A stretch of DNA of 64,000 nt, taken from assembly GCF_054482525.1 (NCBI RefSeq), contig NZ_CM137006.1. One strand, written 5' to 3'. The stretch's first letter is position 1; each line of letters starts with the position of its first letter. A model generated the notes under the pieces. It was not told where the DNA came from and made no database searches. It saw only the letters and a list, made by a program, of their open reading frames with translations. Shown piece after piece: positions 1,907 through 10,000 of this stretch. The position numbers were made by a program, and so were the translations under genes.

Positions 1907-4900
1907 TCAAATCCAGGTATCTCTGCGGGGTTGCATCTTTTTAAAATAATCAGAGACAGAGGCTCCCATCTCATCCCCAGTTCCCGAACTCATTAATCCA
2001 TATCGATTTGCCGCCGCAGCATGCCCAAAAGGATTATCAGGAACGGGGCCGTTACCTATTATCATAGTACTAAGCCCTAATGGATCAACGTGTTGCACTG
2101 GATTCAGCGGATATTGGTACAGATTCCATCCCCCCTTCAGCCCAATCGGGTCCTGGATGATATACCGCCCCTGCAACGGATCGTAGTACCGGTGACGGTT
2201 ATAATACAGCCCCGACTCCTCATCGTGTTGCTGCCCTGGCAGACGGTACGGCTGGTGCAGGTGATGCGGGTTTTCCTCATTCAGCAGGTTGCCCCATTCA
2301 TCATACTCCCCGCTCCACGCCGTATTTCCGTCTTCGCTGATGAGCGCCAGCGGCAGGCCCCGGTGGTCGCAGTGGTAAAGATGAACTTTTCGCGCCGGTG
2401 TGTATTCCGGCTCCACCTGTTTTTCCAGTTGCTCCACCGTCAGCCCGCACTGCGCAAGCCACGCCCGGCTTTCACTGCTCACGCGGTCTGCCCGGATTTC
2501 CCCCTCCAGCCTGTCCAGCAGCCGCACCAGTTCAGCCGGGAACACCACGCCGTGTCCGTCCTCGCTCCCTTCCTGCTGGAGCTTCTCCGCCAGGCTCCGC
2601 CGCTGCGTTTTCTCCCGCTCGCCGTTGTCTGTTTCGATGCGGATGAGCGGTGTGAAGCTTCCCGGCTCGTATACCGTCTGGATACGTGTGCTGTCGGTCT
2701 GCACCGTCGTCAGGTGGTCGCCGTCCCAGCCGTACCACGTCACCTCCGGTTTACGCGACAGCGACATCCACCCCGTCAGGTCACGCTCCCGCCGCCATAC
2801 CCGTTTCGCCATTCGCCGTCCCAGCGGGTCGTAGAGGTAGCGGCTCTCGACCAGTGGCTCTCCATGCTGTATCCGCGTGTAGAACACCAGGCGGTGCTGG
2901 CTGTCGTAGTGGTGGGTCCGCTCGTCGTCCGTCCGTATCACACCCGCCGGGATGCGGTCCGTCTTCTCCGTCAGCCTGCCGTATTCATCGTGGCGGTAGA
3001 CATAGTGCGCATCCTCCGCGATGCGGTTATCCGGCCACACTGTGAGTGTACTGTCCGGGTGCAGCTCCGGGTCCGGCAGCCGGTTGCCCGCCGGGTCCGT
3101 GGCATACGGGATGCGGATGTCCAGGTCCGGTGCGAGGGTGCGCACGCTCTCCAGCCTGCCCGTGGCGCTGTAGCCGTATTCCCGCGTCTGTCGCGGGCCG
3201 CTGATGCGCACCAGGTCGCCGTTGTCATTCCACCCGTAGTCACGGTCATACACCAGGCTGTTCAGGTGCTGACTCTGTAACTGACCTGCGGGGGTGTATG
3301 TGCTGGTCAGTTCATATGCGGAATTACTGCCTGCCATGCTGCCGAAGCTGCGCACCGTCTCACGGTGCAGCCTGTCCCGCGTATACTCGACCAGCGGCGT
3401 CCCGCCCAGCTTCATTCCCGCCAGGTAACCGCTGCCATACGTCAGCCACTCCACCGGCGGCAGGCTGTCCGGCGTGACGCGGTTTGCCAGCCCCTGTTCG
3501 TTGTATGCCTGTTTCGTCTCATGCTGCCACAGCAGTTCCCCCGTCTCCGGGTTCTTCACCGTCTGGCGCTCACTGGTCAGACGGCCTTTATCGTCATAGC
3601 CGTAGTGGACCGCCACACGGTGGCCTTCACTGGTATGGCTGAGGGTGGTTAACCACCCGTGCTCATCCTACTGCCACTGCTCTGCCGGGTCGCCGTTCAC
3701 CGTCCGGTGCGTGATGCGGTCTGCTTCATCGTAGTACCACTGCGTGACCTGCCCCTCATCCTCGCTGCGGATGAGCTGCCCTGTGGCGCTGTACCGGTAA
3801 CGCTGTGTCCTGCCATCAAAGCCGCGCTGCTCCGTCAGGCGGTCCAGCACATCGTAGGTAAATTCACTCCGGCTGCCGTTCTCGTTGGTCAGCACGGTGA
3901 TGCGCCCGGCAGCGTCATACCCCATGCTGCGCGTCAGCCCGCCTTCCGTCACACTCACCGGACGCCCGCGTTTATCATATGCGATGGTGCTGCGTTTACC
4001 GTCCGGTGATATCGTTGCTGTCAGGTCGCCTGCGGCACTGTACTCATAACGGGTTTCACGCCCCTGCGCATCCTTCTGCCCTGTCAGCCTGCCGCGGCTG
4101 TCATAGAGACTATAAATACTGAGACCTTCCTCCCGGTGAACGGCGATTTGTTGACCGTACCGGTCATACTCATACCGCGTCATGTACCCCGAGCAGTCCG
4201 TGAAGGTCCGAAGCTGACCGTACCGGTTTCGCGTTATTCTCCGCGTTACCCCGATTCCGTCTTCCACCGCGCCGGGCAGGCTACTGCGGGGGGGAGTCAT
4301 AAAACCAGCGCGTAATGTTACCGTTGCGCGAGGTCTCTTCTGCCAGTCGGCCCTGACGGTCATATTTCCGGCTGCTGCGTAAACCATCCGGATATGTCAC
4401 TGAAGTCAGTTGCAACTGGCTGTTATAGCCATACCGCACCGTCCTGCCGTCCGGCAGTATCACTGAAGTCAGCTTTCCAGACGCCATATGCAGCCGGTAC
4501 ACCGTCCGCCGCCCCGCCGCATCCGTCTGCGCCTTCAGCCTCCCCGCCTCATCATACTCGCTGCGGGTGATGCTCCCGTCCGCATGCTCCTTCTTCACCA
4601 CCCGCTTCAGGCCACCTTCGCCTTCCGTGTACAGCACCTCCCGCCGGTTCAGGCTGTCCGTGATGGTCACACGGTCCTGCCCGTACTCAAAGCGGTAGTC
4701 AAGTCCCTCCGGGTTGACCTGCTCCGTCACCCGACCGGTATCATCATACCGGTAGCGGCTCTCCGGCCTCCCTGCATAATGGTGCGCCACCATCCGCCCG
4801 GCGTGCTCCGCATCATAAGTAAACCCGCGCACCTGCGTCCCGCTGCGGTCATACACCGCCCGCAGTTCTCCGCTGGCCGTGTACGTGTAGCGCGCCAGCG

Positions 4901-7095: not shown

Positions 7096-10000
7096 TCATT
7101 CATCATATTCCCCACGCCATTCCGTTGCTCCTTCGGTACTGATGAGCGCCAGCGGCAGCCCCCGGTGGTCACAGTGATAAAGATGAATTTTTCGCTCAGG
7201 TAAATAAACCGGCTCTATCTGTGCCGCCAGCCGCTCCACCGTCAGCCCGCACTGTGCCAGCCACTGGCGGCTTTCACTGCTCACGCGGTCTGCCCGGATT
7301 TCCCCCTCCAGCCTGTCCAGCATCCTCACAAGTTCTGCCGGGAACACCACACCGTGGCCGTCCTCGCTTCCTTCCTGCTGCAACTTCTCCGCCAGGCTCC
7401 GCCGCTGCGTTTTCTCCCGCTCGCCGTTGTCTGTTTCGATGCGGATGAGTGGTGTGAAGCTTCCCGGCTCGTATACCGTCTGGATCCGGCTCTGTTGTGT
7501 CTGTATCGTCGTCAGCCTGTCACCGTCCCAGCCGTACCACGTTACCTCCGGTTTACGCGACAGCGACATCCACCCCGTCAGGTCACGTACCCGCCGCCAC
7601 ACCCGTTTACCCGTCCGGCGGCCCAGCGGGTCGTAGAGGTAGCGGCTCTCCACCTGCGGCTCGCCATGCTGTATCCGCGTGTAGAACACCAGGCGGTGCT
7701 GGCTGTCGTAGTGGTGGGTCCGCTCGTCGTCCGTCCGTATCACACCCGCCGGGATGCGGTCCGTCTTCTCCGTCAGCCTGCCGTATTCATCGTGGCGGTA
7801 GACATAGTGCGCATCCTCCGCGATGCGGTTATCCGGCCACACTGTGAGTGTACTGTCCGGGTGCAGCTCCGGGTCCGGCAGCCGGTTGCCCGCCGGGTCC
7901 GTGGCATACGGGATGCGGATGTCCAGGTCCGGTGCGAGGGTGCGCACGCTCTCCAGCCTGCCCGTGGCGCTGTAGCCGTATTCCCGCGTCTGTCGCGGGC
8001 CGCTGATGCGCACCAGGTCGCCGTTGTCATTCCACCCGTAGTCACGGTCATACACCAGGCTGTTCAGGTGCTGACTCTGTAACTGACCTGCGGGGGTGTA
8101 TGTGCTGGTCAGTTCATATGCGGAATTACTGCCTGCCATGCTGCCGAAGCTGCGCACCGTCTCACGGTGCAGCCTGTCCCGCGTATACTCGACCAGCGGC
8201 GTCCCGCCCAGCTTCATTCCCGCCAGGTAACCGCTGCCATACGTCAGCCACTCCACCGGCGGCAGGCTGTCCGGCGTGACGCGGTTTGCCAGCCCCTGCT
8301 CGTTGTATGCGTGTTTCGTCTCATGCTGCCACAGCAGTTCCCCCGTCTCCGGGTTCTCCACCGTCTGGCGTTCGCCGGTCAGGCGGCCTTTATCGTCATA
8401 GCCATAGTGGACGGCAACACGGTGGCCTTCGCTCAGGTGGCTGATTTCTCTCAGCCAGCCGTGGCCATCATACTGCCACTGCTCTGCCGGTTCGCCGTTC
8501 ACCGTGCGGTGAGTGATACGGTCCGATTCATCGTAGTACCAGAGGATGACAAGCCCCTCATCTTCACTCTGCGTGAGTTTTCCGGTCAGGTCATAATGAT
8601 AACGTTGCGTCCGCCCGTCAAAGCCGCCCTGCTGTACCAGGCGGTCCAGCGCATCGTAGCTGAAGTCGCTGTGACTGCCGTTCTCGTTGGTCAGGCTGAT
8701 GACACGTCCTGCCGCGTCATACTCCATACTGCGCGTCAGCCCGCCCTGCGTGGTGCTGACCGCCTTTCCCCACGCATCGTACTGTGTCTCGCTCCGGTTG
8801 CCGTCCGGGGTGATAACGGCAGTCAGGTCGCCTGCGGCGTTGTATTCATACCGCGTTTCACGGCCCTGTGCGTCTTTCACCGAGGTTAACCGGCCACGGT
8901 TGTCATAGCGGCGGTAAAGGCTGATGCCTTCCTCGCGGTGGACCGCCGTCATCTGGCCGAAGCGGTCATACTCATAGCGGGTCTGGTAGCCCGAGCAGTC
9001 GGTGAACGCCAGCAACTGACCGTAGCGGCTCCAGGTCATCTGCCGGGTGCTGCCCGTCGCATCTGTTGTCGTGGCCGGTAATTCACTGTGCGGATTATCA
9101 TAAGCATACCGGATGACGTCCCCACTGCGCGATGTCTCCGATACCAGCCTGTCCCGCTCATCATACGCCCGGCGGCTCTCCAGCCCGTCCGGGTACACCA
9201 CCGCCGTCACCAGGTTCCCGTCGTTATAGTAAAATTTCGTCTCCCGCCCGTCCGGCGTGGTGATGTCCGTGATGTCGCCTGACACCACATTCAGACCGTA
9301 CTCTGTCCGCCGTCCCGCCGCGTCCGTCTGCGCCGTAAGCCGCCCCACCGGGTCATACCCGCTGCGCGTGACGCTGCCGTCCGCCAGTTCTTTTTTCACC
9401 ACCCGCTTCAGCCCGGCCCCGCCTTCTGTATGCAGCACCTCACGCCGGTTCAGGCTGTCCGTGACGGTGATGCGGTCCTGCTCATACTGGTAGCGGTAAC
9501 TCAGGCCTGCCGGGTTCAGCTGCTCCACCACCCGCCCCGCATCGTCGTAGCGGTAGCGCATCTCCGGCCTTCCCGCGTAACGGTGCGCCACCATCCGGCC
9601 CGGGTGCTGCGCGTCATACGTGAAAGCGCGCACCTGCGTATTGCTGCGGTCATATACCGCCAGCAGTTCACCGGCTTCCGTATACGTGTACCGCACCAGT
9701 GGCGCACCGGGCAGGCTCTCCGGGTATGCCGGGTCGTGCATCAGCCACACCGCCGAAAGACGGATGCCCCTGTCGGGGCCGTATTCGGTACCGGGCAGTG
9801 TGTCGGGGAACGCTGAGGCTGAGAGAGGGCGGGAACGGTCAGAAGAAGATAGCGAAGAGGTGCGGGCCTCTTCCGCACGCTGCGCCTGCGTGGTCAGCAC
9901 CAGACGGAACTCCCGCCCGGCACCGTCCGTCACGCCGGTGATTTCCCCGGCCAGGTCACCGGCGGCCTCACGCCGGTACGTCAGCGTCCGCCCGAAGCGG

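Follow-up and report, generated by a model that had tools for sequence, protein, structure and literature searches.

A 635-bp identity tract between tandem rhs pseudogenes of Escherichia coli is probably a footprint of gene conversion

The first 13 kb of a 64,000-nucleotide stretch of Escherichia coli DNA (RefSeq assembly GCF_054482525.1, contig NZ_CM137006.1; the window) carry a minus-strand vgrG-rhs element with two tandem rhs genes. Its gene order is vgrG, rhs-B, immB, rhs-A, immA and ISAs1, where rhs-B is the vgrG-proximal copy, rhs-A the downstream copy, and immB and immA are putative immunity genes. The region is 99.6-99.8% identical to strains SCU-102, 19KM1776 and PCN033. The question raised by this locus is why two diverged rhs cores should be identical over several hundred bases. 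The initial annotation proposed that these repeats could mediate toxin switching, by deleting the intervening tip and immunity gene and joining the upstream N-terminal region to the downstream tip. From sequence comparison, we consider it likely that homologous recombination (gene conversion) between paralogous rhs cores of the element produced the 635-bp identity.

The sequence relationship itself was as first described, about 0.75 kb of nearly identical core at an offset of 4802 with weaker homology along the full length. Using blastn of 1801-6000 against 6301-10800, a single high-scoring segment pair was obtained (2109-5874 against 6911-10662; 80.8% identity over 3782 columns). The longest exact run within it is 635 bp, 2862-3496 matching 7664-8298 at an offset of 4802. 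Extended to 3555, the tract covers 694 bp with 2 mismatches, and extended to 3614, 753 bp with 10. Identity is therefore not much lower than had been read from the translations. From 2109 to about 4250 the offset stays at exactly 4802; further 5' in the genes it becomes 4801 and then 4786 because of small indels. In gene sense, the 3' flank (2400-2861) has about 91% identity, and on the 5' side identity drops to 79% and then to 55-75%, so that zero mismatches in 635 bp contrast with 9-45% divergence around them. When alignment columns were shuffled, the longest run reached at most 71 across the whole alignment and at most 136 in the local 92% region. With an identity of 0.877, as in the flanks, a run of 635 bases has a probability of about 6e-37. 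The tract thus has the abrupt edges and the run length far beyond expectation (635 against at most 136 in shuffles) that mark a conversion tract.

Two explanations without recombination bear on this pattern. Extreme purifying selection on this part of the core could in principle preserve it, as the tract is ordinary RhsD/E-type core, 97.8% identical to K-12 rhsD, and its best match in an E. coli genome collection is 95-99% in 2367 genomes. However, the 100% identity covers synonymous sites too and its boundaries are abrupt, the allele is found at 99% or more in only 36 genomes, the two copies of strain 2013C-4830 are just 59-90% identical here, and tract length varies among near-identical strains. 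We find selection alone extremely unlikely. A recent whole-gene tandem duplication, with the tract as the part not yet diverged, would fit the tandem collinear genes, the constant offset and the full-length homology. It is hardly credible, however, given that the 5' 2.2 kb of the copies are just 55-87% identical and that the 5' parts form two lineages, which keep their upstream and downstream positions across strains and two chromosomal loci. Uniform divergence after duplication cannot yield 0% beside 15-45%.

Comparison among strains gives the tract a history. It is present with slightly shifted edges in the independent complete genomes SCU-102, PCN033, 19KM1776 and elppa4, and is therefore no artefact of the window sequence alone. 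The longest identical run between copies is 583 bp in SCU-102, 500 bp in elppa4, 645 bp in 19KM1776, 775 bp in PCN033 and 854 bp in GF43, where it is shifted 3'-ward; 2013C-4830 has no tract, its longest run being 59 bp. In the four closest relatives (at least 99.2% identical over the locus), rhs-gene differences from the window are clustered, and the clusters beside the tract fall on sites diagnostic for A or B. PCN033 rhs-A has 25 variant sites in 3497-3668, 22 of which carry the rhs-B base, and one of the changes removes a TAG stop. All ten variant sites in 8299-8416 of rhs-B in 19KM1776 and elppa4 carry the A-type base. A 6-bp insert after 7708 is found in rhs-B of SCU-102, PCN033 and 19KM1776 and is missing from the window, elppa4 and rhs-A; its absence explains why the window tract is 635 bp instead of 583 bp. 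Both kinds of variant, 22 of 25 sites and ten of ten, are what conversion with strain-specific edges leaves behind. Because the edges differ between near-identical strains at sites of paralogue bases, we prefer to see in the tract what past conversion has produced, and not just a potential substrate, and it appears to be a gene-conversion footprint and not a sign of conservation.

Short-read polishing is known to go wrong at repeats of at least 0.6 kb within 5 kb, where reads from one paralogue are mapped to the other and the consensus is homogenised. The PCN033 rhs-A patch is a singleton, with no second genome found in a search of other genomes. An artefact of this kind is nevertheless highly improbable as the source of the tract, which occurs in at least five complete genomes assembled independently in different laboratories. 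The variants also recur in independent assemblies: the rhs-B edge variants in 19KM1776 and elppa4, with eight more assemblies scoring almost like elppa4, and the absence of the 6-bp insert in the window and elppa4.

A third copy outside the window appears to take part in the exchanges. When A 2400-3496 was joined to B 8299-8700 as a synthetic query for a chimera with its junction in the tract, the best matches (98.8-99.1%) came from the closest relatives of the window, at a different locus. This is the K-12 rhsE site (ansP-yncH ... ydcC-yddH-nhoA), which in SCU-102, 19KM1776 and PCN033 contains vgrG, one intact 4155-bp rhs (rhs-C) with its own tip and immunity gene, and ISAs1. Of about 620 informative sites 5' of the tract, essentially all are B-type in rhs-C, and the 94 between tract and tip are all A-type. 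Within 19KM1776, rhs-C equals rhs-B for 2,107 bp (columns 831-2941) and rhs-A for 1,414 bp (columns 2297-3716, to the core/tip boundary). The 645-bp tract shared by A and B is exactly the overlap of these two segments, and the rhs-C switch point lies inside it, relative to the A and B of that genome. rhs-C also corresponds to parts of the tandem pair that GF43 carries at the orthologous rhsE locus, namely the B 5' part followed by the 3' core and tip C of the downstream copy; all 448 tip sites match and flank divergence is 2-4%.

The exact overlap in 19KM1776 is also what would be expected if A and B had never exchanged directly, each having been converted by or having donated to rhs-C, so that the tract is simply where B=C and A=C coincide. 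Two further observations point the same way. The edge patch in rhs-B of 19KM1776 carries a T at column 2296 that is specific to rhs-C, which makes rhs-C the more likely donor of this patch than rhs-A. In SCU-102, the module at the T6SS (type VI secretion system) locus and that at the rhsE locus show no difference across about 4.1 kb, a block that takes in the rhs 5' part and the whole vgrG. On the other hand, rhs-B of SCU-102 and of the window stays B-type at 8299-8416 and shares the tract beyond, so exchange through rhs-C alone requires at least two separate patches where a direct A/B tract requires one event, and is less parsimonious for these two strains. The PCN033 rhs-A patch has B-type bases absent from rhs-C, and rhs-C is not within the window and is known from relatives. 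We regard exclusive traffic through rhs-C as possible but doubtful; as such traffic would itself be homologous recombination of rhs cores, it amounts to a version of the explanation favored here.

The exchange between loci may extend to vgrG. Both SCU-102 copies (T6SS locus 13714-15822; rhsE locus 11507-13615) have the same premature stop at codon 592. The two VgrG proteins of 19KM1776 are identical and intact, and both vgrG copies of PCN033 are annotated as frameshifted; its VgrG1 and VgrG2 are reported to be one residue apart (PMC6363058). Lesions thus appear to have been copied between loci. At the rhsE-locus version of the module in NCTC10444 (4151-5451) and about 12 similar genomes, a group II intron (ltrA, itself degraded) sits between the immunity-A gene and ISAs1.

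If homologous recombination joins these cores, single-copy chimeras should exist, and one does in a relative with a single rhs gene. At the same yafV/T6SS locus, 19KM1831 has one intact 1409-aa rhs followed by immunity A. Along the gene, B-type sites reach alignment column 3213, A-type sites start at column 3280, and tip A follows. The last B-type informative site is A 2648 and the first A-type site A 2581, placing the switch in the block 2582-2647/7384-7449. A junction of this type, at 98.7% identity, tops the matches in at least 40 genomes, and strain 7/2, the one inspected, has it at the rhsE locus. The architecture predicted by the initial annotation, a B-type N-terminal region joined to a downstream tip, is thus found at both loci (19KM1831; rhs-C), and tip B and immunity B are absent from these chimeric genes; the product that the window itself would give is truncated, as set out below. 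Tip A of 19KM1831 departs from that of the window at only one of 531 bases, so the divergence of its ISAs1-side flank appears to lie mostly in ISAs1 itself. That 19KM1831 is a recent deletion derivative of a window-type locus is unsupported, with 97.5% identity in the flank and 98-99% in the B-type core.

We propose that the 3' third of the core is repeatedly homogenised among the two tandem copies and the third copy at the rhsE locus, presumably by RecA-dependent recombination. Non-reciprocal events would produce patches with edges that vary by strain. If the direct repeats recombined reciprocally, a segment of 4,802 bp would be excised, carrying with it the rhs-B 3' core, its tip, immB and the 5' part of rhs-A. 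What remained would be a single chimeric rhs whose N-terminal region is B-type and whose 3' core and tip come from the downstream copy. We infer the order and direction of events; single-copy chimeras may have come from deletion and not the tandem state from insertion. The repeats were correctly identified as a recombination substrate, and the product was correctly foreseen; the tract is primarily a record of past conversion.

Several points weigh against this proposal. The evidence for recombinant junctions is comparative, coming from other genomes and none from the window strain itself. Measured against the window alleles, neither switch point falls within the present tract, that of 19KM1831 lying 215-281 bp to its 3' side and that of rhs-C 118-133 bp to its 5' side. 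The B-type core of 19KM1831 is about 98-99% identical to relatives, and the flank on the ISAs1 side 97.5%. The singleton patch in PCN033 could be an assembly or polishing error. Finally, the donor is ambiguous for some patches, that in 19KM1776 rhs-B fitting rhs-C better than rhs-A.

Neither rhs gene of the window retains the intact frame of a functional effector. The TGA in rhs-B is shared by none of SCU-102, PCN033, 19KM1776 and elppa4. The lesions of rhs-A are common to the relatives checked at sequence level, except for the TAG, which is missing in PCN033. The Prokaryotic Genome Annotation Pipeline (PGAP) calls rhs-A frameshifted in SCU-102, elppa4, 19KM1776 and PCN033, and with an internal stop too in all except PCN033. 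The C7 frameshift is probably real rather than a sequencing error, because it is annotated in several independent assemblies; the C7 run is a slippage-prone site. Over 531 bp, the tip of 19KM1831, which is intact, differs from tip A at the TGA and nowhere else.

Deletion across the tract (3497-8298) is predicted to take out the rhs-A frameshift, the rhs-A TAG and the rhs-B TGA, and to leave a 1310-codon open reading frame (ORF) that ends at the tip-A TGA with 54 of about 148 toxin residues. Restoration of an intact rhs gene by this deletion is ruled out by tip A's own stop at 1907-1909. The suggestion of toxin switching fails for the window strain on this account, and a functional switch there would be impossible without reversion. 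As both copies are already pseudogenes, the tract has no effector-switching function in this strain now.

The state of the two copies differs among strains. In the tandem pairs inspected, a small sample, at most one copy is intact in each. SCU-102, PCN033, 19KM1776 (the rhs-B of these three by annotation) and GF43 have an intact B with a broken downstream copy; in 2013C-4830, B is broken and the downstream copy intact; and both are broken in the window and elppa4. In the lineage of elppa4 and similarly scoring genomes, rhs-B lacks about 0.7 kb at its 5' end, described by PGAP as 'missing N-terminus' (elppa4 locus 12957-13108), and the alignment of elppa4 to the window ends at 9940. This 5' loss is another independent route to an inactive vgrG-proximal rhs.

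A broader idea is a conversion network in which inactivating and repairing mutations alike spread among the two tandem rhs copies, the rhsE-locus copy and such vgrG genes as accompany them. The TAG of rhs-A is gone in PCN033 after an apparent B-to-A patch, and the same vgrG nonsense codon stands at both SCU-102 loci, which is why we raise it. In the window strain, rhs-A has TGG at 2294 and could serve as template for repair of the rhs-B TGA at 7096, as could probably rhs-C, which is A-type across the region in relatives. If such a network existed, effector genes would be switched off and rescued through templated conversion and not point reversion. We consider it speculative and rather improbable.

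Table 1. Coordinates, in window positions, of the genes, identity tracts and lesions of the vgrG-rhs element
Feature	Position	Strand	Details
Identity tract, rhs-A copy	2862-3496		635 bp, 100% identical to 7664-8298
Identity tract, rhs-B copy	7664-8298		includes the site after 7708 with 6 additional bases in other B alleles
66-bp exact A/B block	2582-2647 (partner 7384-7449)		holds the B-to-A switch point of 19KM1831
Variable tract edge, rhs-A	3497-3668		B-type bases in PCN033, TAG stop absent
Variable tract edge, rhs-B	8299-8416		10/10 variant sites A/C-type in 19KM1776 and elppa4
TGG>TGA nonsense in rhs-B (W of YDEWGN)	7096-7098	-	window-specific against four relatives
+1 frameshift in rhs-A, C7 homopolymer (C6 in GF43)	4288-4294	-	frame analysis
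TAT>TAG nonsense in rhs-A core	3668-3670	-	frame analysis
TGG>TGA nonsense inside tip A	1907-1909	-	toxin cut 54 residues after DPLGL
vgrG	10708-12816	-	702 aa, intact in the window; TIGR03361 match, E = 5e-188
rhs-B, vgrG-proximal	6394-10641	-	core 6911-10641, tip B ~6394-6885; one in-frame TGA
Putative immunity gene for tip B (immB)	5932-6381	-	149 aa, 34% GC
rhs-A, downstream copy, pseudogene	1625-5855	-	core 2109-5855, tip A 1625-2071; DPLGL 2072-2086
Putative immunity gene for tip A (immA)	1226-1624	-	132 aa, 34% GC
Vestigial orphan rhs core-end fragment	1107-1165 (~60 bp)	-	translates ...QYDDESELHYNWHRYYNPGQG...; translation and blastn
ISAs1-family (H-rpt/ydcC-like) transposase gene, cut by the window edge	1-945	-	distal end of the Rhs element

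The locus as a whole has the composition of a classical Rhs element, with GC-rich cores (63%), AT-rich tips (37-40% GC) and small downstream ORFs at 34% GC (Table 1). Upstream of vgrG lie hcp and then a complete T6SS cluster at the aspV tRNA (the aspV island). In SCU-102, 99.8% identical to the window, hcp and tssA-M adjoin the element. The genes therefore show the linkage to vgrG, hcp and T6SS core genes seen for Rhs/YD-repeat polymorphic toxins. In rhs-B, Pfam PF05593 (RHS_repeat) matches at E = 7e-72 in 12 stretches, PF03527 (RHS) lies at the core end and DUF6531 is also found. DUF6531 is clear in the rhs N-terminal region (E = 7e-19), and PF05488 (PAAR_motif), for the PAAR domain that the initial annotation names, reaches 16.9 bits at residues 2-20, below the Pfam cut-off of 27. 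Both cores end in DPxGL-(18 aa)-DPxGL followed by an AT-rich variable tip, canonical in rhs-A (DPIGL...VDPLGL) and deviating in the second motif of rhs-B (DPIGL...IDSLGL, S for P, about 6886-6900). The IDSLGL of rhs-B is its second autoproteolysis-type motif, where rhs-A has VDPLGL.

A small ORF follows directly downstream of each tip, and these ORFs stay with their tips across strains; we consider the 149-aa and 132-aa ORFs putative cognate immunity genes. Homologues of immB at 87.5% DNA identity are annotated 'RHS element protein dsORF-h1', and the equivalent of immA is a hypothetical protein directly after rhs in the annotation of all relatives. No significant Pfam or NCBIfam match was obtained for tip A, tip B, immA or immB, all hits being far below threshold. 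An HExxH-type motif, HEFAH, was spotted by eye in tip B (6610-6624, minus strand), which suggests a zinc-metallopeptidase-like toxin. Between immA and ISAs1, the vestigial fragment has a 49-bp blastn match (81.6%) to the 3' core of rhs-B, and strain 7/2 has an equivalent with the annotation RHS fragment. It resembles what an older tip module would leave behind after displacement. The position of the ISAs1 gene was taken from the SCU-102 annotation (locus 2809-3945, corresponding to window -191..945). A promoter and terminator scan of the region between immB and rhs-A gave background-level matches only. Within rhs-A and rhs-B there is no Chi site, the closest being in vgrG (11724-11731), so Chi gives no account of the tract position. 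Across the 64 kb of the window, eight Chi sites (GCTGGTGG) are present, all on the minus strand, with 2.5 expected.

Taken together, this case is a clean instance of known Rhs recombination. Recombination between cores is a textbook Rhs property, novelty is low and our understanding of Rhs biology is unchanged. It is of use as a well-resolved natural example of how an Rhs toxin locus is remodelled, in which a homogenised stretch of 3' core would serve as the joint for re-assorting N-terminal delivery regions and tips, within and between loci, and in which conversion can carry or erase nonsense mutations. It also carries a warning for annotation, since this strain has only pseudogenes for the two rhs copies at the T6SS locus. 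Assembly and variant calling are made harder here by paralogue tracts that are nearly identical.

The closest precedent is the main/orphan rhs pair of Salmonella Typhimurium, in which a 522-bp, 95%-identical repeat was described and fusion to the orphan tip was shown experimentally (Koskiniemi et al. 2014, PMC3967940). As there, direct core repeats lie upstream of two different tips (635 bp at 100% and an offset of 4802 here), and fusion unites the main N-terminal region with the downstream tip, at the cost of the first tip and the immunity gene that goes with it; here the fusion junctions are seen by comparison, in 19KM1831 and in rhs-C of SCU-102, 19KM1776 and PCN033. Unlike in Salmonella, the downstream unit is neither an orphan tip nor a fragment lacking the start and export region. 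It is a full-length rhs with its own start, N-terminus and DUF6531 region. Both units here are pseudogenes, and the evidence is comparative where that in Salmonella is experimental. The Salmonella work invoked prior duplication to keep immunity; nothing here points to duplication.

In an earlier model, recombination between cores cuts out a circle made up of a core fragment, a tip and whatever genes lie between (Jackson et al. 2009, PMC2935791). What separates the two copies of the tract here, a 4,802-bp segment, fits that description exactly, the GC-rich core and the AT-rich tips are evolutionarily decoupled, and a vestigial core fragment is present downstream. That model has arrays of dissociated tips and short core fragments, whereas the window has two complete genes of two 5' lineages; interlocus homogenisation with the rhsE site goes beyond it. 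The name Rhs itself derives from RecA-dependent unequal crossover between rhsA and rhsB, in the summary given there (PMC2935791). The parts of the present element and their order, vgrG, GC-rich core, AT-rich extension, small ORF and H-rpt/ISAs1, are those of the classical E. coli RhsD/E elements of Hill and co-workers, as that same summary presents them (PMC2935791). The likeness extends to the match of the tract with K-12 rhsD and to the occurrence of the same module at the K-12 rhsE site in other strains. In contrast to the classical elements, the copy in the window ends the aspV T6SS island beside yafV and has a second tandem full-length rhs.

Abrupt-edged identity tracts within diverged paralogues and mutations copied between copies, such as vgrG codon 592 at both SCU-102 loci, are also features of concerted evolution. 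The rrn and tuf genes are bacterial multigene families that undergo concerted evolution by gene conversion. Tandem immunity paralogues of the type VII secretion system likewise show concerted evolution through gene conversion (PMC9484751). Unlike in those families, homogenisation here is limited to part of the core, and the diversity of the toxin tips is kept. The locus behaves like the known Rhs systems and differs from them in three ways: its downstream gene is complete and of a distinct 5' lineage, both of its units are inactive, and a third locus is involved.

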